A stretch of DNA of 64,000 nt from Candidatus Omnitrophota bacterium (GCA_043813915.1 JBDRKO010000026.1:66236-130235); one strand, 5' to 3'. Numbered from the stretch's first letter, positions 12,007-62,693 are shown. The notes: generated by a model from the sequence alone, not told the origin. Translations and numbers: made by a program.

Positions 12007-12236
12007 AGAGTGTCAAAGTGTCAGAGTATCAGAGTGTCAGGTTGGACCGATGCGGGAAGAAGGGACAGAGGGAAGAAAGACGAAGGAAGAAGGACGAAGG
12101 AAGAAAGACGCGGGCGGACGTGTAATGTTTTATGTGTGATGTGTAAGGACGAGATTGCTTCCCCCCGTCGCTTTGCTCCGCAAAGCGGAGCAGCGGGGGT
12201 CGCAATGACGGGTGGGAGGAAAGGTTGAAAGGGCGA

Positions 12237-18811: not shown

Positions 18812-19237
18812 GGGAGACGAAAGACGAGGGAAGAAGGACGAGAGACGAGGGAAGAGGGACGACTGTTAAGTATCAAGGAGAATAGTTTAAAAGTTAAAGT
18901 TCTGTGGACACCTTTCCCGGGGTAGTGTAAACCCGACCCTCAAGATGTCCCCAGAATATATTTTTACTGGTTACAGGTAACAGACAAAGGGCGTAAAGCC
19001 TGCCTGTCCTGCCTGCGGCAGGTAAACCGGCAGGCAGGGAGTCACCGCGCTTCGCGCTAGAGTCATCATTCGCTACGCTCATTAGGGTCAGAGAGTCAGA
19101 GGGGAAGAAAGACGAAGGAAGAGAGACGCGGGAAGAGTCGCGGAGAGGAGCACGGTTAACTTGCATTTATATTGAATCTATGATAAACTATACTTTATCA
19201 TAGATTTGTTAAATTGTTGAAAAATGGAGTGTGTTTT

Positions 19238-22436: not shown

Positions 22437-22570
22437 AAATAATTGTGTAAGGTGTTATGTGTAATGTGGGGAGGAATTAGTTAAAGGTTAACAAGGGCAT
22501 AGAGCACAGGGCAGAAATGGAGATAGAGGATAGAAACTAGAAACTATATTGGACCATAGACTATTGGATA

Positions 22571-22650
22571 AAGTTACCAGAAACCGGTTACCAGTTACCA
22601 GGGGAAAAGACGTAGATTACTGGTTACAGGTAACAGGCAACTGGTTATTG
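22571..22650. repeat. hairpin-forming intergenic repeat family A (GTTACCAGAAACCGGTTACCAGTTACCAG ... CTGGTTACAGGTAACAGGCAACTGGTTA), MITE-like
   Basis: Four copies: 22571-22650, 26755-26786 (left arm only), 26998-27068, 42588-42655; internal inverted symmetry. Confidence 0.7.
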
Positions 22651-22667: not shown

Positions 22668-22960
22668 ACCCCCTGCAGATTTTTTTGAAATCTAAGCGCG
22701 GGAGCAGGCAAGGCGCCGAGGACGAAATGTTCGAGGTGGGCAAAACGTCCCCGTTTTGACGGAGGTTCCGTTTGCGAGGGAAGCAGTCTAAAAGTCGAAG
22801 GTGGAAGTTCTGAGGACACTCTTCCCGTGGGAGTATAAGCCCTGGCCGAAGAATGTCCCCAGAATATATTTTTATTTCTGTTCACGCTATACGACATTCG
22901 CTATACTCTACACGATATACAAATTAACTGCCATGCGCTGTGCTCTATGCTAATTGTCAC
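22668..22960. repeat. about 300-bp composite repeat, copy 1 (contains AGATTTCTTCGAAATCT palindrome, GACGAAATGTCCGAGGTGGGCAAAACGTCCCCGTTTTGACGGA, GAATGTCCCCAGAATATATTTTTATTTCTGTTCACGCTATACGACATTCGCTATACTCTA)
   Basis: Near-identical to 44761-45105; shorter fragments at 18894-18960, 52340-52360, 52478-52515. Confidence 0.75.
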
Positions 22961-26694: not shown

Positions 26695-27151
26695 GTAGAG
26701 CAGAAGTCAGAAGACAGAGGTTAGAAGTCAGAGTGTAGGGGCACGGCATTATATAGAGTTACCAGAAACCGGTTACCAGTTACCAGAAGAAAGACGAGGG
26801 ACGAGATTGCCGCGTCGCTTCGCTCCTCGCAATGACGGATGGGGGGGTTCCGCTTTCGCTAAGGCTAAGGTGGATAGGCGCAATGACGGGTGGAGATAGA
26901 AGGACGAGATAAAACAAGTATTAAGTGTTAAGTTGTAAGTGTTATGTGGAATGTATGGCGATAATGGCATAGAGCATAGAGCGTAGAGCGTTAAATAAAG
27001 TTACCAGAAACCGGTTACCAGTTACCAGGGAAAAGCCTTAGATCACTGGTAACAGGCAACTGGTTACTTTGAAGAAGTCACTGTTCAAGGCCATGCGCCA
27101 TGCTCTATGCCCTATGCGGTTATTTTTATGTTAGCTACACAAGGAGTTCCG

Positions 27152-28835: not shown

Positions 28836-28905
28836 AGAGGATAGAAGTCAGAGAGACGAGAGACGTGGGACGTGGGAAGAAGGACGAGGAATAGGTTCTA
28901 GCGTG

Positions 28906-29135
28906 AAAAAACAGCCGACCCTTTACATGAAGCAAAAAGAAGCTCCGCAGATGCAATGCAAAGGTCCTTTGGATTCAAGCGTTTTAAGTAGGGAAGCAAG
29001 CGACTTTACGGCACAGATATACGGTAGGGCAGTACTGCTGAATTTAATAGGTAAAAGAGACCAAAACGCTTGACTATGTGATGATAAAAGAACCGGACGA
29101 ACGCGAACCAAACTAAGGCTCGAAGAAGCGCTTAA
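28906..29135. repeat. about 220-bp repeat family K copy 1 (GAAGCAAAAAGAAGCTCCGCAGATGCAATGCAAAGGTCCTTTG...ACGGTAGGGCAGTACTGCTGAATTTAA.AGGTAAAAGAGACCAAAACGCTTGACT) followed by GAACGCGAACCAAAC sub-repeats
   Basis: Second copy at 34362-34575, with additional degenerate GAACG(C/A)GAACCAAAC units to 34700. Confidence 0.7.
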
Positions 29136-29298
29136 CTATGTGATGACAAAGCATCCGTAATGACCGCGAACCAAACGAAGGTATATTATGCGTGATATGA
29201 TAAACAGTATGAAACAGATCATAGAAATGGAAAAACTAGCCGGGGTGGGGGAGATAGTGACAGAGGGTCTAGGGTCGAAAGACGAGGGACGAGTGACG

Positions 29299-29868
29299 AT
29301 GGACGAGATGAGTTTAGTGGAAATAGAGAAAAAGATAAAAAAATGCCGGAAATGCGAGCTTGCGAAGACGCGTACCAATACTGTTCCCGGAGAAGGCGAT
29401 CCCAATGCCCGTCTTATGTTCATAGGCGAAGCCCCCGGGGCGGATGAAGACGCCCAAGGCCGGCCTTTTATAGGCCGCGCCGGACAGCTTCTAACAAAGA
29501 TAATAGAGTCGATAGGGCTTAAAAGAGAGGACGTCTTTATAGCCAATATCCTTAAGTGCCGTCCTCCGGGTAACCGGAACCCTCTGCCGACGGAAATGGC
29601 GGCGTGTGCTTCTTATTTGAAAGCCCAGATAGAGGCTGTAAGACCGGAAGTCATATGCGCTTTAGGGAAATTCGCCGCTCAGACCCTTCTTAACACGGAA
29701 ACGCCTATTAGTAAGCTCAGAGGAGAATTTTACGAGTATCAGGGAGTGAAATTTATGCCGACGTATCATCCCGCGTATCTATTGAGGAATCAGAGCGGGA
29801 AGAAGGACGTTTGGGACGATATGAAAAAGATCGCGAAAGAGCTAGGGATAAAGGTCCCGAAGAAATAA
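29299..29868 (+). CDS. uracil-DNA glycosylase, family 4
   Basis: CRKCELAKTR (Fe-S Cys), GEGDPNARLMFIGEAPG, RPFIGRAGQLL motifs; the 37-codon upstream extension (from 29188) lies in repeat sequence. Confidence 0.75.
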   Translation: MDEMSLVEIEKKIKKCRKCELAKTRTNTVPGEGDPNARLMFIGEAPGADEDAQGRPFIGRAGQLLTKIIESIGLKREDVFIANILKCRPPGNRNPLPTEMAACASYLKAQIEAVRPEVICALGKFAAQTLLNTETPISKLRGEFYEYQGVKFMPTYHPAYLLRNQSGKKDVWDDMKKIAKELGIKVPKK

Positions 29869-33419: not shown

Positions 33420-34351
33420 TGAAAATAATATTTTTTGGAACAGGAGATTTCGGGCTATCTACCCTTAAACGGCTCATAAAGAGCGGACATGACATTGCCG
33501 CGGTGGTAACGCAGCCTGATAAGAAGAAAGGACGGGGGATGGGGGTCCATCCTACGCCTGTTAAGGCATTGATAGAGGATACCATGCCGGGAACGGATGT
33601 GTTACAGCCGGGAAAACTTACCGGAGAGTTTATTGAGGATATAAAGCGTCCGGAAGCCGATGTTTTTGTGGTAGTGGATTACGGTAAGATCCTGCCGGTA
33701 TCCGTGCTGGAACTGCCTAAACGTTACTGTATAAACCTGCATCCGTCGCTTTTGCCTAAGTACAGAGGTTCGTCGCCCGTGAATCAAGCTATTCTTAACG
33801 GTGACGCGGTAACGGGCAATACGGTCATAAAGATTAACGAACGGATGGATGCCGGAGAGATACTGCTTCAGGAAGAATTCATTATTGGTAAGGATGAGGA
33901 CGCGCTGAGTTTGTCCGAAAGATTATCCGCTCACGGCGCGGAACTTATCATCAAGACGCTGGATATGATAGCCGCGGGAAAGGAAACTCTTACCGCGCAG
34001 GATGAGAGTGAGGCCACCTACGCGGCCAAACTCAAAAAAGAGGACGGTGAGATCGATTGGACCCGAACAGCCGAGGAAATAGACAGAAAGATCAGAGGTC
34101 TTAAACCCTGGCCCGGAGCGTTTACTTATATAAACGGAAAGATGTTAAAGATCCTTGAAGCAGAGATAGCACCTGCACAAAAAGACATAATGCTTGCAGG
34201 TACTGTTTTCCTTGATAAGGAGAGATTACTTGTATCTGCCTCGGACAAGGCGATATATGTAAAAATACTTCAGCTTGAGGGGAGAAAAGCAATGTCTGCT
34301 GAAGAATTTATGAGAGGGTGGCCCATAAAGAAAGGTATGATTTTGGGGTAG
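33420..34351 (+). CDS. fmt: methionyl-tRNA formyltransferase
   Basis: MKIIFFGTGDFG N-terminus, HPSLLPKYRG, C-terminal Fmt domain; upstream ORF-track extension is repeat/structured DNA. Confidence 0.85.
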
Positions 34352-34361
34352 ATCCAAAAGA

Positions 34362-34700
34362 GAAAAAACAACTGAACCTTAACCTGAAGCAAAAAGAAGC
34401 TCCCCAGATGCAATGCAAAGGTCCTTTGCCTTCAAGCGTTTTAAATAGAAGGACCAGCAACTTTACGGCACAAATATACGGTAGGGCAGTACTACTGAAT
34501 TTAACAGGTAAAAGAGACCAAAACGCTTGACTGTGTGCTGACAAAAGAACCGGACGAACGCGACCAAACTAAAACGAGACAAAACGTTTGATATCACTTT
34601 AACGAAACAACTATATGAGCGCGAGCCATATGAACGAGAACCAAACTTAGACAAGTTACTAAACACGGAGCCGGAACAATCGCGAACCAGACGTGAGGTT
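34362..34700. repeat. repeat family K copy 2 plus degenerate GAACGNGAACCAAAC sub-repeats
   Basis: Aligns with 28906-29180. Confidence 0.7.
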
Positions 34701-36660: not shown

Positions 36661-37680
<1,020 letters not shown>

Positions 37681-37762
37681 TTGGAATGCAATAGCGATCT
37701 TTAAGGAGAAGGCTTTTTAAAAAAGCCTTCTCCTTAAAGGATAATTACGTAACGGAGCTGAT

Positions 37763-38944
37763 ATGAAAAAAACCCTAAGGGATATACAGATAAGCGGGAA
37801 AAGAGTTCTTATGCGGGCGGATTTTAACGTGCCGTTGAACGAAGAGCGTGTTATTACCGATGACTCGAGAATAACCGCGGCTATGCCTTCCATAAAATAT
37901 ATACTGGATAACAGCGGAAAGCTTATTCTGATGAGTCATTTGGGGCGTCCTAAGGGGGAAGTTGACGACGCTTTGCGGTTGGACCCCGTAGCAAAACGTT
38001 TATCGGAACTTTTGGGAAAAAATGTCAAGAAGATGCCGGATTGTATCGGCAGCGATGTGGAAACGGCCGTAAAGGATATGCGGGACGGCGACGTGATACT
38101 TCTTGAAAACCTGAGGTTTCATAAAGAAGAGAAAAAGAACGATCCTGACTTTTCTAAAAAGCTCGCGTCTCTGGGAGAAGTGTTCGTCGAGGACGCGTTC
38201 GGGACTTGTCATAGAGCGCACGCTTCTACTGTAGGAGTTACAGCGTCTCTGCCCGGAGTTGCCGGATTTCTGGTAGAAAAAGAGATAGAATATTTCGAGA
38301 AGGTGACCAAGTCACCCGAAAAACCGTTCTGTTTAATACTCGGCGGCGCCAAAGTATCGGACAAAATACCCCTTATAGAGAACATGCTCGGGAAAATAGA
38401 TTTCCTGCTCATCGGAGGGGCTATGGCCTATACTTTTCTGAAATCGCGTCTTAAGGGGGTGGGTGCGTCAAGGGTAGAGGATGGTATGGCCGATACGGTT
38501 GAGAAGATATTCGCACTGGCAAAAGAAAAAGGTGTCAGTATTTTTCTCCCGCAGGATCATATAGTCGCGAAAGAGATCAGCCCGAAAAGCAGGCGCAAGG
38601 TGGTAAACGAACATATACCTGACGGATGGATAGGACTTGATATCGGACCAAAGACGGTCAGAACTTACTGTAATGTGATAAAGGAATCAAAGACCATCGT
38701 GTGGAACGGACCTGTCGGTCTTTTCGAGATGAAACCTTTTATGGGAGGCACTAAAAAAATCGCACAGATGATGTCTAAAGCCGATGCCACCACGGTAATA
38801 GGCGGAGGAGATACGGCGGCGGCCGTTAATCAGCTCGGGCTCGGCGGGAAGATGTCGCATATGTCGACCGGCGGAGGGGCGTCGCTGGAATATCTTGAAG
38901 GAAAAGAGTTGCCCGGGATAACGGCATTAGAAGATAAAGACTAA
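37763..38944 (+). CDS. pgk: phosphoglycerate kinase
   Basis: RADFNVPL, MSHLGRPKG, GGGASLE motifs. Confidence 0.9.
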   Translation: MKKTLRDIQISGKRVLMRADFNVPLNEERVITDDSRITAAMPSIKYILDNSGKLILMSHLGRPKGEVDDALRLDPVAKRLSELLGKNVKKMPDCIGSDVETAVKDMRDGDVILLENLRFHKEEKKNDPDFSKKLASLGEVFVEDAFGTCHRAHASTVGVTASLPGVAGFLVEKEIEYFEKVTKSPEKPFCLILGGAKVSDKIPLIENMLGKIDFLLIGGAMAYTFLKSRLKGVGASRVEDGMADTVEKIFALAKEKGVSIFLPQDHIVAKEISPKSRRKVVNEHIPDGWIGLDIGPKTVRTYCNVIKESKTIVWNGPVGLFEMKPFMGGTKKIAQMMSKADATTVIGGGDTAAAVNQLGLGGKMSHMSTGGGASLEYLEGKELPGITALEDKD

Positions 38945-39143
38945 AGTGTCAGAGTGTCAAAGTGTCAGAGTGTCAGAAAAAAAAGAAGGAAGAGAGACGA
39001 GAAACGAGGAATGTCTTCCCAGTGTCATCCCGAGCGAGCAGAGTGAGTCGAGGGATCTGGATCGCTGGATCGGAAATCTTGACTCTTTGGATTTTTTAAA
39101 TACGTGACCATATTACCATTTAAAAACTAGGAACGGAGAAAAA

Positions 39144-42045: not shown

Positions 42046-42698
42046 GGGAGAAAGAAATAGAAGTCAGAAATCAGAAGACAGAGGTCAGAAGACAGAGGCC
42101 AGAGGGAAGATAGACGAAGGACGAAAGAAGAAGGACGAGGGAAGAGCTGCTCTCTTGTCATTCCGACCGATTTCTGTGAAGCTTTAGCGAAGCAGAAGAG
42201 CGGAGGAATCTGGTTAAACACAAGAAAGATCCCTCAACTCGTTGCACTCGTTCGGGATGACAGAGCGGGGGCAGGCAAAGGAGATATTGGGTAGAAGATC
42301 CTGAAGGAGAGTCAAAGAGTCATCGCGCTTCGCGCTAGAGTCAGAGAGTCAGGTTGGACCGAGGTGGAAATAGAGTTATGTGTGATGTTATGATGAGGAA
42401 GTGGTTCTTGTTGCTCGTCATTGCGAACTCCGAGCTATGCGAGGGGTGAAGCAATCCCGGATCTTATAGAGATTGCTTCGTCGCCTGCGGCTTCTCGCAA
42501 TGACGGAGTGAGTGCGAATCACGACTTATGCTGTGCCCTTTGCTCTGTGCTCTATGCTGTTAAAGGTTCGTTAAGCAAAGTTACCAGAAACCGGTTACCA
42601 GTTACCAGAAGAACGACGTGATTTGCTGGTTACATGTAACAGGCAACTGGTTACTATTTGTTAGGCACAAATTACCGCTCGCAAAAAAACGATACATT

Positions 42699-44575: not shown

Positions 44576-44760
44576 AGGTCAGAGGATAAAAGAAGTATCA
44601 GAGTGTCAAAGTGTCAGAGTGTCAGAGATGAGCTAAGGAAAAAAGACGATGGACGAGAAAGAGTTTTAAGTGTTATGTGGGATGGAAATAGTTAAAGGTT
44701 AACAAGGGCATAGAGCACAGGGCACAGCGCATAGCATTAAGAAAGACGAAGGAAGAAGGA

Positions 44761-45105
44761 CCCCGGCAGATTTCTTCGAAATCGAAGCGCGGGGGCAGAC
44801 GAAGCGCCGAGGCACCGAGGCACCGAGGACGAAATGTCCGAGGAAGTACTGAGGCCTCCCGGCCGAAGTGACGAAATGTCCGAGGTGGGCAAAACGTCCC
44901 CGTTTTGACGGAAGTCCCGTTTGCGAGGGAAGCAGCCTAAAAGGCGAAGGTGGAAGTTCTGAGGACACTCTTTCCATGGGAGTATAAGCCCTAGTCGAAG
45001 AATGTCCCCAGAATATATTTTTATTTCTGTTCACGCTATACGACATTCGCTATACTCTATACAATATACGAATTAACTGCCATGCCCTGTGCTCTGTGCG
45101 CTATG
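44761..45105. repeat. about 340-bp composite repeat, copy 2 (with internal CGAGGCACCGAGGCACCGAGGAC tandem expansion)
   Basis: Aligns module-for-module with 22668-22960. Confidence 0.75.
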
Positions 45106-46695: not shown

Positions 46696-46930
46696 ATTGT
46701 GGGAAATGACAGTCAAAATACCTATCACCGGTTTCTAACCTGACAGATCTAACCAGGTTAGCTGCTAACCTGGTTAGAAAACTTAAAAAACTTACCCAAA
46801 AATGATATTGAATATTTAGTAGAAATTTGGTAAACTGGCGGTTCAAATCAGTTCATAGTTGGTAGTTCATAGTTCGTAGCCGGAAGCTAGTAGCTTTGTT
46901 TTTTTGTGACTATAAACTTAATAAAGAAAA

Positions 46931-47044
46931 AACCCGCTTACGCCGAACTATTTAGGTTTCATCTGGCTTCAGCGGGTTAATTCGCACGTATAACTTATAC
47001 CCCTTACAGTTGTATAAGTTATGTGCTCATTAAGGAGAATGTAA
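46931..47044 (+). promoter_or_regulatory. related structured leader upstream of leuC (diverged third copy)
   Basis: cccgct...agcggg hairpin then ttaattcgcacgtataacttatac...tgtataagttatgtgctcattaaggagaatgtaaATG; same architecture and same RBS context. Confidence 0.45.
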
Positions 47045-48325
47045 ATGGGTTATACGATAACGGAAAAGATAATACTTTCTCATGTTCCCGGTCTAAAAAA
47101 GATAGCTCCCGGGGATTTTGTTAAAGCTAAAATAGATATCTGTCTGGGGAACGATATTACAAGCCCTATAGCTATAAAAGAGTTCCGGGATCTGGGCCTG
47201 AAAAAGGTTTTTAATCAGAAACGTATAATACTGGTCCCGGATCACTTTTTGCCTGCCAAAGATATGAAAAGCGCTAACCAGGCTAAATTGCTCAAGGATT
47301 TCGCCAAAGAATTCGGTATAGAGCATTATTTCGAGCTTGGGGAAATGGGAGTAGAACATGCGCTTCTTCCCGAAAGGGGTCTCATTATGCCGGGAGACCT
47401 GATGATAGGGGCGGATTCTCATACCTGTACTCATGGCGCGCTGGGAGCTTTCGCGACCGGCATGGGAAGTACGGATCTGGCCTATGCGATGGCGTTCGGC
47501 GAATGCTGGCTTAAGGTTCCCGAGACCATAAAGATCGAGTTTACAGGCAAGCCCAGAAAATGGGTCGGCGGAAAAGACCTGATATTGCATGTTATAGCGG
47601 ATCTCGGTGTCTCCGGCGCTTTGTACAAAGCCCTGGAATTTACCGGCGATACTATGGAAGCGCTTTCTATGGACGACAGAATGAGCATGTGTAATATGGC
47701 CATAGAAGCCGGCGCGAAGAACGGAATAATAGCGCCGGATAAGATCACCGAAAAATACGTGAAGGAAGCGATAAAAAAATATAAACCGTCGCGAAAGACA
47801 TATAAGCTTGTAAAGAGCGATAAAGACGCTGAATACTCGGATATAAGAAAATACAATGTGTCTAAAATGGAACCGATGGTAGCCGCTCCCCATTTGCCTT
47901 CTAACGGCAAACCTGTCAGCGAATTTAAGAACGTGAAAGTCGACCAAGTGGTCATAGGTTCGTGTACCAACGGCAGAATAAGCGATCTCAAACTGGCGGC
48001 AACGGTGCTTAAGAATAAAAAAGTAAGTCCTGATACGCGTCTTATTGTTATTCCTGCCACACAGGCCGTGTATGCGGAGGCCGTCAAAGAAGGGTATGCC
48101 GAGGTTTTCATACGCGCCGGGGGCACTTTTTGCACTCCCAGCTGCGGACCTTGTCTGGGCGGGCATATGGGGATACTGCACGAGGGGGAAGTCGCTATAG
48201 CTACTACGAACCGCAATTTTGTCGGTAGAATGGGTCATCCTAAAAGTTTTGTATATCTTTCGAACCCGGCGGTGGCTGCCGCAAGCGCCGTAAAGGGGAC
48301 AATATCTCATCCATCCGACTTTTAG
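47045..48325 (+). CDS. leuC: 3-isopropylmalate/homoaconitate dehydratase large subunit, short archaeal type (about 420 aa)
   Basis: Aconitase-family Fe-S ligands (GSCTNGR, PSCGPCLG), short LeuC/HacA-type length. Confidence 0.8.
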   Translation: MGYTITEKIILSHVPGLKKIAPGDFVKAKIDICLGNDITSPIAIKEFRDLGLKKVFNQKRIILVPDHFLPAKDMKSANQAKLLKDFAKEFGIEHYFELGEMGVEHALLPERGLIMPGDLMIGADSHTCTHGALGAFATGMGSTDLAYAMAFGECWLKVPETIKIEFTGKPRKWVGGKDLILHVIADLGVSGALYKALEFTGDTMEALSMDDRMSMCNMAIEAGAKNGIIAPDKITEKYVKEAIKKYKPSRKTYKLVKSDKDAEYSDIRKYNVSKMEPMVAAPHLPSNGKPVSEFKNVKVDQVVIGSCTNGRISDLKLAATVLKNKKVSPDTRLIVIPATQAVYAEAVKEGYAEVFIRAGGTFCTPSCGPCLGGHMGILHEGEVAIATTNRNFVGRMGHPKSFVYLSNPAVAAASAVKGTISHPSDF

Positions 48326-50039: not shown

Positions 50040-50075
50040 AAGAGTAGGGGCACGGCATGCCGTGCCCCTACATTA
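50040..50075. repeat. palindromic element GTAGGGGCACGGCATGCCGTGCCCCTAC (family H), terminator-like, after leuB
   Basis: Perfect 14-bp inverted repeat; further copies at 55358-55395 (after argC), 52055-52085 (after truA, 1 mismatch), half-site 26738-26755. Confidence 0.7.
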
Positions 50076-52013: not shown

Positions 52014-52578
52014 GACCTAGGAGCAGAAGACAGAAGTCAGACGTCAGAGTGTAGGGGCACGGCATGACGTGCCCTATATGGTTTACGAATCACCCCCGCA
52101 GATTTCTTCGAAATCTAAGCGCGGGGGCAGGCGAAGGACGAGAAAAAAGTGTTAAGTGTTAAGTTTTAAGTGTTATGTGCGGTGTATAATGGCAAAGCGC
52201 ATAGGGTTAAGAAGTCAGAAGGAAGAAGCGTACCGGACTATAGACTATTGACCATAGACTATAGACCAAGAGCTTATAAGTCAATCGTCAATGGTCTGTT
52301 CGGGCTGTTCCCGAGTCACGAAGCACTAATTACTGGTCGAAGAATGTCCCCAGAATAAGGCGCATAGCATTAAGAAAGACGAAGGAAGAAGGACGCGGGA
52401 CGAAGGACGAGATTGCCGCGTCGCTTCGCTCCTCGCAATGACGGAGTAGTCACGAATCACGAATTACTGGACGAAGAATGTCCCCAGAATATATTTTTAT
52501 TTCTGTTCACGTTAAAGAAAGTCCAAGCCTAGAATGATCTCCCGTTAAAGATATCAGCAACTACAGTTATTAATGCAA

Positions 52579-54344: not shown

Positions 54345-55358
54345 ATGGTTAAAGCAGGGATAATCGGTGTGACCAGTTATACAGGGGAGGAGCTGATAAA
54401 AGTGCTTTTAAGGCATCCCGAAGCGGAAATAACCGCGCTTTCGGCACGGATAGAAGAAGAGACCGCCATAACGAAACTATATCCGCAGTTCAGCGGATTG
54501 ACGGAATTGTCATACAAGACGATGGACGTTGACGAGATCTCGGGGAAATGCGACGTAATATTCCTCGCGCTTCCTCATACGGTTTCCATGGGTGTTGCTC
54601 CGGAATTCCTGAAAAAGGGAAAAAGGGTAATAGATCTAAGCTCGGATTATAGGTTGCCCGGCGATGTGTATGAAAAGTGGTATGGGACGGAACAGACCGA
54701 TACGGATAATCTGGGTAAGGGCGTTTACGGCCTTCCGGAGATCAACAGGGACAGTATAAAAAAAGCGCTCCTGATCGCTAATCCCGGGTGTTATCCGACA
54801 AGTGTCATATTGGCCCTTTTACCCGTTATAAAAAATGCGGCCGGTAAAAAAGCCAAGATCATAGCGGATTCGAAGAGCGGAGTTACCGGGGCCGGCCGGA
54901 AAGCACTTTTATCTCTTACTTTTGGCGAGGTTGACGGAAATTTTAAATGTTATAAACCGAACGCGCATCAGCATATGCCTGAGATAGACCACATCTTGTC
55001 GGCGGTCGCGGAAAATAAGGTCGAAATAAATTTTGTTCCGCATCTCCTGCCCATAAGGAGGGGTATACTTTCGACGGTATACGTGCCTAGCGACGGACTG
55101 GGCTCTGAAAAGGATATATTCGATATATATTCGCGATATTTCAAAGACGAACCGTTCGTAAGGATAAAACCACTTGGGGAGATGCCGGAGATAAAAGACG
55201 TGGCGGGGACGAACTTTTGCGATATCGGTATACGGGAAGCCAGGGGGACATTGATAATAGTTTCCGCGATAGATAATCTGTTAAAGGGCGCAAGCGGACA
55301 GGCGGTACAAAATATGAATATCATGTACGGTATTGATGAACGCGCGGGATTGAAATAA
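54345..55358 (+). CDS. argC: N-acetyl-gamma-glutamyl-phosphate reductase
   Basis: VKAGIIGVTSYTGEEL N-terminus, active-site ANPGCYPTS. Confidence 0.85.
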   Translation: MVKAGIIGVTSYTGEELIKVLLRHPEAEITALSARIEEETAITKLYPQFSGLTELSYKTMDVDEISGKCDVIFLALPHTVSMGVAPEFLKKGKRVIDLSSDYRLPGDVYEKWYGTEQTDTDNLGKGVYGLPEINRDSIKKALLIANPGCYPTSVILALLPVIKNAAGKKAKIIADSKSGVTGAGRKALLSLTFGEVDGNFKCYKPNAHQHMPEIDHILSAVAENKVEINFVPHLLPIRRGILSTVYVPSDGLGSEKDIFDIYSRYFKDEPFVRIKPLGEMPEIKDVAGTNFCDIGIREARGTLIIVSAIDNLLKGASGQAVQNMNIMYGIDERAGLK

Positions 55359-55413
55359 AAGAGTAGGGGCACGGCATGCCGTGCCCCTACATCAACATAC
55401 GCAGAGGAAATAT

Positions 55414-56604
55414 ATGGAAAATTTTAAACTTCCGGAAGGTTTCTTGGCTAACGGGATACATTGCGGGTCCAAGAAAAAGAGGAAGGACCTTGCTCTGATA
55501 TTCTCGGAAAGACCGTGCGCTATAACGGCCATTTTTACCAGGAATATCGTTAAAGCGGCGCCTGTACTATTGGCCCAAAGGCAGCTGAAGAGGGCCGGTC
55601 ATATACGCGGGGTGCTGATCAATTCGGGCAACGCGAACTGCATGACCGGGAAACGCGGGATAGAGGATGCCGAGAAAATGGCGTACGGAATGGCGGAGGT
55701 GCTGGGTGTAGGAAAAAATGAGATACTTGTTTCTTCCACAGGCATAATCGGAGAGTTCATAGATCTTAGGCCAATTAAAAAAGGGATGAAGGAGATAGCT
55801 AGAGGCCTATCGGCGGATGGAATACTGGATGCCGCGGACGGGATCATGACAACGGACAGGTTCCGGAAAATATCGCAGCGTACTTTTATGGCGGGAGGCA
55901 AAAAAATACACATGGCAGGTATAGCCAAGGGCGCAGGAATGATCAAGCCCAATATGGCTACTATGTTATGCTACATAATGACGGACGCGGATATTTCGCA
56001 GAAAGCTATGAAGGCGGCTCTTGCCGAAAGCGCGGACAGGTCTTTTAACGCTGTTTCGGTGGACGGGGATATGAGCACTAATGATACGGTCATGCTTTTG
56101 GCGAACGGGGCTTCGGGCAACAGGACCATAAAATACAAGGGTAAGGATTTTGATGTTTTTAAAAAGAACCTGTGTATGTTATCGGACGATCTGGCGAAAA
56201 TGATAGTTTTGGACGGCGAAGGAGCTCAAAAATTCATAGAGGTCCATGTAAAGAGGACAAGGACCAAGAAAGAAGCTAAAAAAGCGGCGGAAGCTATAGC
56301 AAGTTCTTTGCTGGTGAAATGTGCTGTGCTGGGAGGGGATCCGAATTGGGGAAGGATAGCTTCATCGGCGGGCGCAAGCGGGGTGAAATTCGACCCGGAA
56401 AAGATAGAAATAAGTCTTGACGGAGTGACGTTCTTCAAGAACGGAAAGACCCTTAAAGAGGTGGACCGAAAAAACTCGGCGGTCTTTAAAGGCAAAGATG
56501 TCAAGATAGAGGTCGTTCTTAATACGGGAAAAGAGGAAGCTAAATTCTTTTCCTGCGACATATCGAAGAAATATATAACGCTTAACTCGTATTACACGAC
56601 GTAG
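55414..56604 (+). CDS. argJ: bifunctional ornithine acetyltransferase / N-acetylglutamate synthase
   Basis: Autoproteolytic ATML site (MATMLCYIMTD); start ATG 55414 with agaggaa SD downstream of palindromic terminator. Confidence 0.85.
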   Translation: MENFKLPEGFLANGIHCGSKKKRKDLALIFSERPCAITAIFTRNIVKAAPVLLAQRQLKRAGHIRGVLINSGNANCMTGKRGIEDAEKMAYGMAEVLGVGKNEILVSSTGIIGEFIDLRPIKKGMKEIARGLSADGILDAADGIMTTDRFRKISQRTFMAGGKKIHMAGIAKGAGMIKPNMATMLCYIMTDADISQKAMKAALAESADRSFNAVSVDGDMSTNDTVMLLANGASGNRTIKYKGKDFDVFKKNLCMLSDDLAKMIVLDGEGAQKFIEVHVKRTRTKKEAKKAAEAIASSLLVKCAVLGGDPNWGRIASSAGASGVKFDPEKIEISLDGVTFFKNGKTLKEVDRKNSAVFKGKDVKIEVVLNTGKEEAKFFSCDISKKYITLNSYYTT

Positions 56605-56702
56605 TGCTGTGTGCTGTGTGATGTGTGATGTGTAATGTGTAATGCGCGAAATGAAAGGAACATAAAACTTAACACATGACACATAAAACAAGCAGGTAAT
56701 TC

Positions 56703-59777: not shown

Positions 59778-59873
59778 ATAGAGGCTAGATGGTGAACGGG
59801 TAATCGCATAGGGCACAGAGCATAGGGCATAGGGAAGATAGGGTCAGAACGACAAAGCACAAATGACAAATGA

Positions 59874-59970
59874 CCCCGCCCTTTTAAAGGGAAAAGGGCG
59901 GGGTTAATTCGGCCGTATAACTTATGTTCGTTATCACTCCATAAGTTATGGCCTCATTAAGGAGAATGTA
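59874..59970 (+). promoter_or_regulatory. conserved structured leader (GC hairpin + ATAACTTATG/CATAAGTTAT hairpin + RBS) upstream of argG
   Basis: 56 nt identical to the argH leader (61262-61317); related copy upstream of leuC (46931-47044). Confidence 0.5.
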
Positions 59971-61140
59971 ATGAAAAAGAAGATCGTACTTGCGTATTCC
60001 GGAGGTCTGGATACCTCGGTGGCCATAAAATGGCTTATGGAGAGGGAGTATGAAGTAATATGCTTTATGGGAGACGTAGGGCAAGGCGCCGATACGGAAA
60101 AAGCGCGCAAGCGGGCTTTGAAAATAGGGGCATCTAAGTGTAAAGTTGCCGACCTTAAAGAGAAATTCCTGAAAGAATACGCGTTCCAGGCGTTGAAGAC
60201 AGGGGCTAAATATCAGGGAAAGTATAATCTCGCGACGGCATTATCCCGTCCGATCATTGCCGAAGCTATGTCGGACTTCGCAAAGAAAGAGAAAGCGTCC
60301 GCTGTGGCTCACGGATGTACGGGTAAAGGGAACGATCAGGTGCGGTTCGAAGCGACATTCCAGATGAAAATACCTAATGTCAAAGTGATCGCGCCTGTAA
60401 GGGAGTGGGAACTTAAAACACGCGAAGATGAGATAGATTACGCGAAAGAACACGGTATACCGATAGAGCAGACAAAAAAGAAACTTTATAGCGTTGATCT
60501 GAACCTTTGGGGTATAAGTGTGGAAGGCGGAAAACTGGAAGATCCGTGGATCGAACCCCCGCCGGATACGTTCATAACGGTGGTTCCGCCCGAGAAGGCT
60601 CCTAATAAGGCTGTATATCTCACAATATCGTTCAAGAAGGGTATACCCATAGGAATAAACGGCAGGGAGTACCCCGCGATCGAGCTGGTGAAAAAGCTCA
60701 ACAAGATCGGAGGTATACACGGAATAGGCAGAGTGGACATGGTAGAAGACAGGCTTGTCGGAATAAAGTCCCGAGAGGTGTACGAAGCTCCGGGATCGGA
60801 AATACTTTATAGCGCTCATTCCGCGCTGGAGGAACTGGTATTGGACCGGGCAACGCTTAAATATAAAAGCGCGATAGCCGCAAGGTACGCTGATCTTGTA
60901 TATAACGGTCTGTGGTTCACTCCGCTGAAAAAGGCTATAGATGCTTTTGTAGATAAGACGCAAGAGAACGTTGTCGGTGAAGTCAGGGTAAAACTTTACA
61001 AAGGCAAAGTGACCGTTTGCGGACGGAAAAGTCCGAGATCGAGGTATAAAGAAAAACTTGCAACGTACGGCGAAGGAGACATCTTCGACCAATCATTGGC
61101 GAAGGGTTTTATCGATCTCTGGGTGATGCCGTATAGATAG
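59971..61140 (+). CDS. argG: argininosuccinate synthase
   Basis: AYSGGLDTS PP-loop, GCTGKGNDQVRFE motif. Confidence 0.9.
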   Translation: MKKKIVLAYSGGLDTSVAIKWLMEREYEVICFMGDVGQGADTEKARKRALKIGASKCKVADLKEKFLKEYAFQALKTGAKYQGKYNLATALSRPIIAEAMSDFAKKEKASAVAHGCTGKGNDQVRFEATFQMKIPNVKVIAPVREWELKTREDEIDYAKEHGIPIEQTKKKLYSVDLNLWGISVEGGKLEDPWIEPPPDTFITVVPPEKAPNKAVYLTISFKKGIPIGINGREYPAIELVKKLNKIGGIHGIGRVDMVEDRLVGIKSREVYEAPGSEILYSAHSALEELVLDRATLKYKSAIAARYADLVYNGLWFTPLKKAIDAFVDKTQENVVGEVRVKLYKGKVTVCGRKSPRSRYKEKLATYGEGDIFDQSLAKGFIDLWVMPYR

Positions 61141-61227: not shown

Positions 61228-61319
61228 TCCCGCCCTTTTACAAAAGGGCGGGATTAATTCGGCCGTATAACTTATGTTCGTTATCACTCCATAAGTTATG
61301 GCCTCATTAAGGAGTTGTC
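61228..61319 (+). promoter_or_regulatory. conserved structured leader upstream of argH (second copy)
   Basis: cccgcccttttacaaaagggcggg hairpin then ttaattcggccgtataacttatgttcgttatcactccataagttatggcctcattaaggag identical to argG copy. Confidence 0.5.
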
Positions 61320-62693
61320 ATGAATAAACTATGGGGGGGACGGTTCTCTGGAAAAGAGATCGATCCGGAAGTTATGAAGTTCACTTCCAGCTTGGATGTA
61401 GATAAAGTCCTGGCCAAGTATGATTGTCATAGCAGCAAAGTCCATGTGGATATGCTTTCAAAAAAAGGGTTTATTTCCGGAGAAGAAAAAAAGATATTAA
61501 CGGAAGCCTTGGATGAACTTGCCGCCAAGATAGAGGACGAGTCTGTGCCCTTGGAGGGGTATGAGGATATACATTCGTTCGTACAGGACTATGTTGCCCG
61601 GAAGTCTCCCGACGCCGCGAAAAAAATGCATACCGGAAGGTCGAGGAACGAACAGGTCGTCAATGACGTTCGTTTATATGTTAAGGACTCCATAAGGAAC
61701 ATAAAGGGGTTCATAAAAGAGTTCCAAAAGGAAATGGTGGGGCTTGCGGAAAGGTCCGACGGAGCGATATTGCCCGGATATACACACCTGAACCGCGCTC
61801 AGCCTGTTCTTTTTGCGCACCTCATAATGGCTTACGTAGAGATGATGGAAAGGGATATCGAAAGGCTTGATAGCGCGCTCTGCCGTACTGATATTTCCGT
61901 GATGGGATCCGGCGCGCTTGCGGGATCCGCGCTTGATATCGACCGCAAATTTGTCGCCGAAAGGTCCGGGTTCGCGGGGACATCGCCGAACAGCATAGAC
62001 GCCGTCAGCGACAGGGATTTTATCGCGGAATTCATCGGAGCTTTATGCCTGACGGGACTGCACCTTTCAAGGATATGTGAAGATCTGATATTGTACGGGA
62101 CCCCTGAATTCGGGTTTCTGCAGATAGGGGAAAAGTATTGTACAGGAAGCTCGCTCATGCCGCAGAAAAAGAATCCTGATGTGCTTGAACTTGTCAGGGG
62201 AAGGTCTTCTCAGCTTATCGGAGCGTTCACTTCCATATTCGTTCTGCTTAAAGGGCTTCCTCATTCATATAACCGAGATATGCAGGAAGATAAAAAACCT
62301 TTATTCGAATCGGTCGATAATATTTCCGGCAGCCTCCGCATAATGAAAGGCGTGATGTCCGACGTGGTATTGAACAGGGAAAACATGTTAAAAGCGCTTG
62401 AAAACGAGTTCATCTACGCGACGGATATAGCTGAATATCTTGTGCGTAAAGGGGAATCTTTCGGCAATGCCCATAACATAGTCGGAGGAATAGTCAAACA
62501 GTGTTCGGCGTCCGGGAAAAATATCTCGGATCTTTCTTTGGCGGAACTTAAAGAACATTCGGACGATCTGGAAGAAGATGTGTATGGTCTGCTTGACCCG
62601 GAGACTTCGGTTAAGAACAAAGTTACCGCGGGGAGCACGAATCCGGGATATGTCGGCAAAGAGATAGCCCGCTGGCAGAAGAAACTTAAGTGA
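61320..62693 (+). CDS. argH: argininosuccinate lyase
   Basis: LWGGRFSG N-terminus, fumarate-lyase signature GSSLMPQKKNPD. Confidence 0.9.
   Translation: MNKLWGGRFSGKEIDPEVMKFTSSLDVDKVLAKYDCHSSKVHVDMLSKKGFISGEEKKILTEALDELAAKIEDESVPLEGYEDIHSFVQDYVARKSPDAAKKMHTGRSRNEQVVNDVRLYVKDSIRNIKGFIKEFQKEMVGLAERSDGAILPGYTHLNRAQPVLFAHLIMAYVEMMERDIERLDSALCRTDISVMGSGALAGSALDIDRKFVAERSGFAGTSPNSIDAVSDRDFIAEFIGALCLTGLHLSRICEDLILYGTPEFGFLQIGEKYCTGSSLMPQKKNPDVLELVRGRSSQLIGAFTSIFVLLKGLPHSYNRDMQEDKKPLFESVDNISGSLRIMKGVMSDVVLNRENMLKALENEFIYATDIAEYLVRKGESFGNAHNIVGGIVKQCSASGKNISDLSLAELKEHSDDLEEDVYGLLDPETSVKNKVTAGSTNPGYVGKEIARWQKKLK

Follow-up and report, generated by a model that had tools for sequence, protein, structure and literature searches.

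A REP/BIME-like hairpin module placed next to SD sequences in Candidatus Omnitrophota

Introduction

REP/BIME sequences of enterobacteria, including the REPINs that are mobilised by RAYT transposases, are short imperfect palindromes present in many copies in transcribed intergenic regions. Their hairpins adjoin a conserved short flank and carry a conserved bulge or mismatch, their stems vary between species and are homogenised within a genome, and they are assembled into inverted and tandem mosaics with linkers whose presence differs between relatives. Correia elements (CREE) of Neisseria and ERIC sequences of enterobacteria, both MITE-like, lie between the genes of operons, form long hairpins and vary in presence between strains; they are co-transcribed, can be processed, and alter the stability or translation of neighbouring cistrons. 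The attC sites of integrons form imperfect hairpins in which the outer box is paired and the central spacer is not, an inner box and extrahelical bases follow, and the top varies; they are homogeneous within a genome and variable between genomes, and are held in a fixed orientation between a stop codon and the next start. Lastly, the thrS operator, the ompA 5' stem-loop and the RNase III sites of T7 are hairpins that stand 5' of an exposed SD or at a processed 5' end, with a lower stem that is read by a protein or nuclease. The repeated element described here resembles REP/BIME in the features of palindromes and mosaics just listed, attC in all of the respects given, Correia and ERIC in its location, hairpin and variable presence, and the last group in the placement of its hairpin.

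Omnitrophota are uncultured, mostly ultra-small bacteria, of which 176 complete genomes are reported in bioRxiv 10.64898/2026.06.07.730766. No published accounts of gene-expression signals in Omnitrophota were found, nor was a published description of this element found in the literature on their genomes. The element came to attention in a stretch of 64,000 nt of a Candidatus Omnitrophota bacterium (GCA_043813915.1 JBDRKO010000026.1:66236-130235), the whole of which is here called the window, where an initial annotation made from the sequence had noticed a hairpin leader before argG and argH with a diverged copy before leuC, and had taken it for a functional RNA hairpin or a dimeric-regulator operator shared by arginine and leucine biosynthesis genes. 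The element represents either a new SD-targeting mobile DNA or a general translation or stability signal. Intergenic lengths are inflated by it, and it ought to be masked or modelled during annotation; it also offers a case study of repeats turning cis-regulatory, with recent insertions in an arg operon, an old conserved copy at leuC and a decayed remnant in a relative.

Copies in the window and their anatomy

Three copies of a two-hairpin unit adjoin the sequence GGAG in the window, 5' of argG, argH and leuC, just where the initial annotation had placed them, as inspection of the sequence confirmed. Pfam matches identify the downstream genes as argG, argH and leuC, in the clusters argD-argF-argG-argH-lysA and leuC-leuD-leuB-asd. 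The palindrome ATAACTTAT-N(8-30)-ATAAGTTAT occurs three times in the 64 kb against 0.00 expected, and the sequence CTCATTAAGGAG likewise has three occurrences, confined to the same leaders. The copies belong to one repeat family: with positions 59892-59964 as reference, 61242-61314 are 99% and 46965-47037 are 68% identical. A covariance model built from 13 sequences and run over the 64 kb with filters off returned exactly the argG, argH and leuC copies (84.4, 82.3 and 73.1 bits, respectively), the next best match scoring 15 bits.

Each copy consists of a GC-rich hairpin, H1, followed directly by a second element, E5 (TTAATTCG-hairpin-CTCATTAA). Read from its 5' end, E5 comprises TTAAT, TC, a G with 3 nt, a 2-nt bulge, a stem of 10-11 bp, the loop, the complementary arm, 3 nt with a C, TC and ATTAA, after which GGAG follows. 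In the argG copy, H1 (CCCCGCCC-loop-GGGCGGGG; 59874-59903, + strand) gives a 15-bp stem on folding, is homologous to the H1 of argH and belongs to the duplicated unit, and E5 occupies 59904-59960 (+ strand), with P1 at 59904-59908/59956-59960, the TC/TC internal loop at 59909-59910/59954-59955, P2 at 59911-59914/59950-59953, a GT bulge at 59915-59916, P3 at 59917-59926/59940-59949 and the loop at 59927-59939. The SD, GGAG at 59961-59964, is separated by 6 nt from the ATG at 59971 (59961-59973, + strand), and this SD and spacer are the same in a relative without the element (L122). In the argH copy, H1 (TCCCGCCC-loop-GGGCGGGA) lies at 61228-61253 and E5, identical in sequence to that of argG, at 61254-61310, followed by GGAG at 61311-61314, a 5-nt spacer and the ATG at 61320 (61311-61322; all + strand). 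The leuC copy has an H1 of the form CCCGCT...AGCGGG with an inner GCC/GGC helix (46933-46976, + strand) and an E5 at 46977-47033 (+ strand), with P1 at 46977-46981/47029-47033, TC/TC at 46982-46983/47027-47028, P2 at 46984-46987/47023-47026, the GT bulge at 46988-46989 and P3 at 46990-47000/47012-47022; its GGAG (47034-47037), 7-nt spacer and ATG at 47045 span 47034-47047 (+ strand).

Homology between the argG and argH units runs from the first C of H1 through GGAG, and the sequence on both sides of them is unrelated. The stretch they share had been given as 56 identical nucleotides, but it amounts to 61 nt (TTAATTCG...GGAG) together with an 11-nt part of H1 that has one mismatch, the H1 loops differing by an indel; likewise, GGAG and ATG stand 6, 5 and 7 nt apart at argG, argH and leuC rather than the 8-9 nt first reported. 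The hairpin itself is real and is longer than was described, an outer helix TTAAT/ATTAA, the TC/TC internal loop and the GT bulge having to be added. The compensatory changes that had been proposed between the arg and leuC copies are present, P2 being GGCC/GGCC in the former vs GCAC/GTGC in the latter, and the top of P3 a G-C pair in the arg copies vs A-U and C-G pairs at leuC.

Distribution across Omnitrophota

A scan of GTDB (one genome per species) with the flanks alone as the query, TTAATTCG-N(30-60)-CTCATTAAGGAG, recovered at least 120 stretches, nearly all from MAGs of Candidatus Omnitrophota and representing about 60 or more species; chance matches to this pattern were estimated at roughly 30 for the whole GTDB collection. 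In about 0.81 Mb of retrieved loci, the covariance model detected 195 copies, 72 of which fall outside the exact pattern. Conservation extends 5' of the flank, with a G at positions -4 and -3 before TTAATTCG in 90% and 88% of 120 family members. By extrapolation from the three copies in the 64-kb window, the number of copies per genome is probably on the order of a hundred. The sole match in IMG/VR consists of chance flanks inside an ORF, without the hairpin, and a phage origin was rejected.

In many genomes (L008 4520-4585, L010 4865-4935, L019 3748-3805 and others) H1 takes a longer, bipartite form, CCCGCC...[N5 AAATT CTCTTCGAT AATTT N5']...GGCGGG, with a conserved apical loop and covarying outer stems; this type of H1 does not occur in the window. 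Genuine copies with both the hairpin and H1 were also seen on contigs labelled as a Methanosarcinales archaeon (L076), Nitrospirota (L030) and, in several cases, 'uncultured Planctomycetia', labels that probably reflect mis-binning or submitter taxonomy.

Fold and covariation

The predicted fold of E5 begins with a 5-bp P1 helix, usually UUAAU/AUUAA, followed by an invariant UC/UC internal loop and the 4-bp P2, whose first pair is an invariant G-C and above which stand a 2-nt bulge on the 5' arm, a P3 helix of about 10 bp and a variable loop. Minimum free energy (MFE) folding alone returns this architecture for 109 of 118 distinct copies and leaves GGAG unpaired in 114 of the 118, with a mean folding energy of -20.4 kcal/mol vs -9.2 kcal/mol after the interior is shuffled. 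In an alignment of 150 sequences, 97.6% of cells are paired vs 33-50% when partners are slid, and 18 of the 19 pairs have changed on both sides; this alignment was itself fitted to the covariance model, but the MFE folds, which are independent of it, give the same picture. The TC/TC loop is kept in 146 and 142 of the 150 sequences, and the adjacent U-A and G-C pairs are invariant. P1 covaries in copies that lie outside the flank selection, as TCAAT/ATTGA, TAAAT/ATTTA and TAAGT/ACTTA. The modelled fold is strongly supported by these results. The initial annotation had suggested folding the leader, and this turned out well for E5, which folds by MFE with GGAG free, but less so for the full leader, in which H1 can extend into UUA and compete with P1 in the predicted fold when the flanks are included.

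The stems contain G-U or U-G pairs about as often as A-C or C-A mismatches (31 vs 30 overall, and 21 vs 21 in SD-adjacent copies). Wobble pairs that are no commoner than A-C mismatches are atypical of RNA-selected helices and fit palindromes that are maintained at the DNA level.

Several other readings of the flanks and of E5 were weighed, most of them in the light of the covariation of P1. A target-site duplication of TTAA was rejected, as the P1 variants are reverse complements and not direct repeats. An extended SD, in which UUAAGGAG pairs with the 16S tail, is unlikely to account for the flank, P1 shifting to ATTGA or ATTTA while GGAG stays. A promoter inside E5 was discarded on the grounds that the spacing from TTAATT to the 3' arm varies by 30 nt, that the stems of other subfamilies lack a -10-like hexamer, and that a promoter-like block is found upstream of the leuC copy. 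The element might also be read as a signal for processive antitermination like those of rrn and nut, in which the hairpin would stand for boxB and (G)CUCAUUAA for a boxA-like site for NusB/S10. The 3' flank does resemble the boxA core, GCUCUUUAA, and follows a hairpin, as in rrn leaders, and the element stands before highly expressed genes and after the terminator-like H1; the boxA-like segment, however, is paired in P1 and covaries with it (CTCATTGA, CTCATTTA, CTCACTTA), which a NusB/S10 site should not tolerate, and antitermination is accordingly very unlikely. None of the retrieved loci contains an rRNA.

Downstream genes and position

Among the matches listed, the start codon falls 5-9 nt after GGAG in 107 of 126 pattern matches. 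The downstream genes, again among the matches listed, include those for 19 ribosomal proteins (S19, S16 three times, L31 three times, L32 twice, S13 twice, S11, L20, L21, S15, S6, L28, L25 and S1), 17 of which were identified by direct scan and the second L32 and S13 copies through BLAST groups; ribosomal-protein genes make up about 15% of the downstream genes sampled. The other products listed include EF-Tu (tuf), ACP (acpP; two cases), RecA, PhoU (three), PstS (two), RibH (two), acyl-CoA dehydrogenase (three), LemA-like proteins (three) and one further ArgG, and two tRNA-Ser genes have as their first base the first G of GGAG. Matches to 951 different NCBIfam families were obtained, and the 126 downstream proteins form 29 same-family pairs vs about 4 expected if the element were scattered over about 2000 genes; its position is therefore non-random, and it appears to favour stand-alone or first-in-operon, highly expressed genes.

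An SD is not part of every copy. When a stem-only search was made, with neither flank nor SD in the query, 8 of about 21 elements were flush with an SD, and about two thirds of the copies recovered by queries without the SD do not abut one. A mirror-image subtype, TAAGTTCGGAC...GTCCTCACTTA, has no SD and lies antisense on the opposite side of H1, over stop codons; in at least 11 cases the upstream gene takes its stop codon from the sense-strand flank of this subtype, TAAGTGAG.

Within the window, the element precedes argG, argH and leuC only, among about 50 genes, and an arg/leu-specific leader (an attenuator, a riboswitch, a T-box-like RNA or a dimeric-repressor operator) was the first reading. 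The search across genomes that had been recommended, by pattern and covariance model with the downstream genes listed, instead revealed a phylum-wide family and turned the motif into a general intergenic repeat before unrelated genes, ribosomal-protein genes, tuf, recA, phoU and tRNA-Ser among them; the element is missing from four orthologous arg operons, and nothing of it is seen in 3 of the 5 other leuC leaders examined. The absence of a recognisable ARG box, T-box, Rfam leader or riboswitch, remarked on at the outset, holds: Rfam 15 has no match at gathering threshold in the whole window, permissive scans giving noise with a best E above 0.2, and the ARG box TNTGAATWWWWATTCANW (an 18-bp palindrome, up to 3 mismatches) has 16 matches vs 23.6 expected, none of them in the argG or argH leader. 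A leader peptide was rejected, as the sole mini-ORF in the loop of the arg copies, MFVITP, has neither Arg nor Leu codons and its frame is not conserved; the loop reads ATG...TAA because of the TTATG/CATAA ends of the stem. A dimeric-repressor operator on double-stranded DNA was likewise rejected, the loop that would separate its half-sites ranging from 3 to about 60 nt and therefore excluding a fixed geometry. An arg/leu-specific leader is thus scarcely credible, and the association seen in the window is a sampling accident. What remains of the original proposal is a structurally constrained hairpin that is no chance palindrome; arg/leu specificity and a dimeric operator fall away.

The position of the units is also relevant to whether the module acts by its structure alone, with no sequence-specific reader. 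On such an account, H1 would either terminate transcription weakly or in part or protect the 3' end of the upstream cistron, and E5 would be a 5' stabiliser and insulator of the ribosome-binding site following cleavage of the UUAAUU linker by, for example, an RNase E- or RNase III-type activity. The AU-rich linker between two stable hairpins, the size of E5 (about 21 bp-equivalents) and its single-stranded GGAG are in keeping with this, as are the units found between operon cistrons and between tRNA-Thr and tuf, and the genes that have E5 at their 5' end and the mirror subtype at their stop codon. Structure alone, however, leaves the invariant UC/UC loop, the pairs that flank it and the sequence of the leuC loop unexplained, and G-U is tolerated no more than A-C in the stems. 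H1 has a strong GC stem, but its tail is T-poor (GGTTAATTCGG), UUAAUUCG holding 4 U in 8 nt, and a simple terminator scan flagged no + strand H1 at any of the three copies in the window. A purely structural role is doubtful on balance.

Turnover at the DNA level

Ca. Aadella gelida has the nearest ArgG (84% identity) and LeuC (89%), and the gene order argC-J-B-D-F-G-H-lysA-dapF is common to four other Omnitrophota genomes, this nearest relative included. No copy of E5 was found in these four syntenic clusters (52.7 kb) with the covariance model run with filters off; their argF-argG spacers measure 160, 183, 18 and 82 nt and their argG-argH spacers 84, 23, 53 and 3 nt. The empty sites retain the ribosome-binding region (in Ca. 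Aadella gelida argG, GCTTAAGGAGAATATAATG vs CTCATTAAGGAGAATGTAATG in the window) and already read (T)TAAGGAG. Copies being absent from four syntenic operons in which the SD is retained, the arg copies are therefore lineage-specific insertions that end exactly at the SD, and the near-identity of the argG and argH units fits a recent duplication. A direct repeat was sought at the left edges of these two units and none was found.

Similar exchanges are seen elsewhere. LemA genes that are about 93% identical in DNA carry E5 copies of different subfamilies and H1 hairpins that cannot be aligned, and the S16 genes of different species have unrelated stems, whereas copies within one genome are alike (e.g., four in CAZUTJ01 and three in JBDRBY01). 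Three H1+E5 units stand in tandem in one locus (L054), and inverted composites are built around H1. Taken together, these comparisons show a module that has been gained, lost, duplicated and swapped at the DNA level, in the manner of REP/BIME or MITE-type repeats, and that has entered both the argF-argG and the argG-argH junction of an otherwise tight, conserved operon, as well as the space between the conserved leuC promoter block and its SD. An ENA contig with an identical argG (k141_1273319; L001, 2687 nt) ends inside the argH copy, and the repeat therefore breaks short-read assemblies.

Such behaviour is what would be expected of a purely selfish mobile DNA hairpin of the REP/RAYT, IS200/IS605-PATE or MITE kind, moving as single- or double-stranded DNA without a host function and preferring to land just 5' of a purine-rich SD (TTAA/GGAG) and at TAA or TGA stops. 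Presence and absence at syntenic sites with a ready-made (T)TAAGGAG, two near-identical copies in one window, homogenisation within genomes, swapped content at orthologous sites, composites and arrays resembling BIMEs or REPINs, and the missing wobble preference all speak for this account, and a conserved bulge with an internal loop is typical of DNA hairpins that are recognised by proteins. Against it, P1 is a covarying inverted repeat with no TTAA target-site duplication, the left edges of the argG and argH units lack a terminal duplication, the flanks are kept phylum-wide, and copies recur before the same gene families; a phmmer search of 961 ORFs in about 0.87 Mb of loci with an approximate query, which is a weak test, found no IS200-like TnpA. 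The conserved leuC copy also speaks against it, and a selfish element devoid of function is unlikely.

The leuC copy

Upstream of leuC, a promoter-like block (46808-46836, + strand) consists of TTGAAT, a 17-nt spacer ending in TGG, and TAAACT. The block is present in six genomes (the window, L143, L152, L153, L154 and L155) as TTGAWT, 17 nt ending in TGG, and TAAACT (TAGACT in L153), while the rest of the upstream spacer cannot be aligned across the six. We infer that this conserved block is the leuC promoter, which would place H1 and E5 inside the leuC 5' UTR. The initial annotation had raised the concern that transcription might start downstream of the motif; at leuC it probably does not, since the conserved block lies upstream of the copy.

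Between the window and L143, E5 with its SD (46976-47037) is identical at 61 of 62 positions, loop included, whereas identity falls to 69-70% in the two ABC-transporter genes upstream, to 41% in the spacer and to 76% in H1, the last with a compensatory change from U-A to C-G. A selfish hairpin would hardly keep this single-copy version 98% conserved, loop and all, over a divergence that erased the spacer. A stem search of metagenomes found the leuC loop type at leuC only, with no second copy, so that the conservation is accounted for by purifying selection on the sequence and not by gene conversion from elsewhere in the family. At least one copy is thus under strong sequence constraint. In Ca. 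Aadella gelida the leuC site holds a decayed remnant (TTAATTCGCAG...CTCAATAAGGAG, 11.5 bits), and three more distant genomes, of the five other leuC leaders examined, have no trace of E5. The leuC copy is thus old, conserved in two lineages and dispensable in a third; the decay at leuC and the lack of copies in the arg operon of Ca. Aadella gelida together mean that the element is dispensable there.

Comparison with described repeats

With 195 model matches in about 0.81 Mb, inverted pairs and the tandem units of L054, the family displays the mosaic of high-copy extragenic palindromes that is the hallmark of REP/BIME. Unlike REPs, it lacks the tetranucleotide GT[AG]G in its position profiles and has in its stead the invariant flank T-TC-G / C-TC-A; a RAYT (Y1 HUH transposase) was not found by the approximate IS200 TnpA query among the 961 ORFs in about 0.87 Mb of loci; its flanks are shared phylum-wide, and its unit includes the GC hairpin H1. 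Moreover, REPs lie mostly 3' of genes, whereas this family joins the SD directly at its 3' end and, in the mirror subtype, is fused to stop codons. Correia and ERIC sequences have terminal inverted repeats and a TA target duplication, and Correia an IHF site; in this family P1 is a covarying helix, a duplication was not seen and the place relative to the SD is fixed. The target-site duplication that marks the edges of a MITE is similarly missing, the TTAA...TTAA flanks being an inverted, covarying pair. The cores of attC sites, RYYYAAC/GTTRRRY, are not matched by the flanks TTAATTCG...CTCATTAA (on the other strand, TTAATGAG...CGAATTAA), and the flanked genes are housekeeping genes in conserved synteny, with no integrase context seen. 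The thrS operator, the ompA stem-loop and the T7 sites each serve a single gene, whereas E5 recurs 5' of many genes that have no relation to one another and is propagated by copying. The element works like REP/BIME, Correia and ERIC repeats and its shape recalls attC, yet it fails the defining sequence features of each, and it departs from all of them in its phylum-wide flanks, its SD-fused 3' end and its mirror subtype at stop codons.

Proposed role

The reading that we favour, with a probability of roughly one half, is that of a REP/BIME-like copy-and-paste leader module whose hairpin is read next to the SD for generic post-transcriptional control. The module would be transcribed as part of the mRNA, where the stable hairpin would end exactly at the SD and leave GGAG free. 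A conserved trans-acting factor, be it an RNA-binding protein or an endoribonuclease, would recognise the invariant foot of the hairpin, U-UC-G / C-UC-A. In this way the module would serve as generic punctuation that sets the stability or processing of the 5' end of the downstream cistron and its accessibility to ribosomes, with no response to either amino acid, arginine or leucine. Endonucleolytic processing would fit the AU-rich linker that joins H1 to E5 and an E5 of about 21 bp-equivalents; the upstream RNA would then end in H1, and a protective hairpin would stand at the start of the downstream cistron. Alternatively, access of the 30S subunit may be gated by a bound protein, as at translational operators.

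An extension of this reading is more speculative and is improbable as it stands, namely that E5 serves as the cis-element through which a post-transcriptional regulon operates phylum-wide, as a bacterial equivalent of the 5'TOP motif of eukaryotes. The U-UC-G / C-UC-A foot beside the SD would be read by a conserved RNA-binding protein or by the ribosome itself, and the translation or stability of on the order of a hundred mRNAs (an extrapolated figure), enriched for ribosomal-protein and other growth-related genes, would be coordinated in this way. New genes would be recruited to such a regulon by the copying of E5 to a position just 5' of their SD.

Other repeats and features of the window

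The window is rich in other repeats. Tandem arrays of 7-, 8- or 14-nt units (GGAAGAA, GACGAGG, AGTGTCAG, CAGAAGT, GTGATGT, GCATAGG) occupy most long intergenic regions, at 12007-12110, 18816-18862, 26701-26732, 29263-29307, 38943-38977, 42049-42138, 44594-44627, 52147-52410, 56604-56644 and 59806-59834; they recall the heptamer STRR repeats of cyanobacteria, and similar arrays occur in spacers of Ca. Aadella gelida (L152). A second repeat family, ending in GAATGTCCCCAGAATATATTTTTATTTCTGTTCACG, is found at 18890-18966, 22798-22889, 44947-45038 and 52314-52514. It lies inside repeats of 220-230 nt (22721-22950 vs 44870-45099, 94% identical; 28892-29111 vs 34349-34568, 86%) and also occurs on a metagenome contig from sample Ga0180007 (L150).

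Several palindromes are also present. A perfect 28-nt palindrome, GTAGGGGCACGGCATGCCGTGCCCCTAC, occurs twice, at 50044-50071 (after leuB) and at about 55363-55390 (after a gene ending at 55358), with half-copies at 26725 and 52041, and may be a terminator or another palindromic repeat family. The repeat GTTACCAGAAACCGGTTACCAGTTACCAG, followed by the inverted CTGGTAAC...GGTTAC, has four copies (22552-22607, 26737-26792, 26979-27034 and 42559-42614), all in long spacers just 5' of genes. Between the genes at 36679-37680 and 37763-38944, a perfect hairpin, TTTAAGGAGAAGGCTTTTTAAAAAAGCCTTCTCCTTAAAGG (37694-37744), pairs an SD-like AAGGAG with CTCCTT and may be a bidirectional terminator or an SD-sequestering structure. 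Throughout the window (1-64000), the + strand carries nearly all long ORFs, and every 2-kb bin has a positive GC skew (+0.04 to +0.26); the genes are co-oriented to an extreme degree, and the whole stretch belongs to one replichore.
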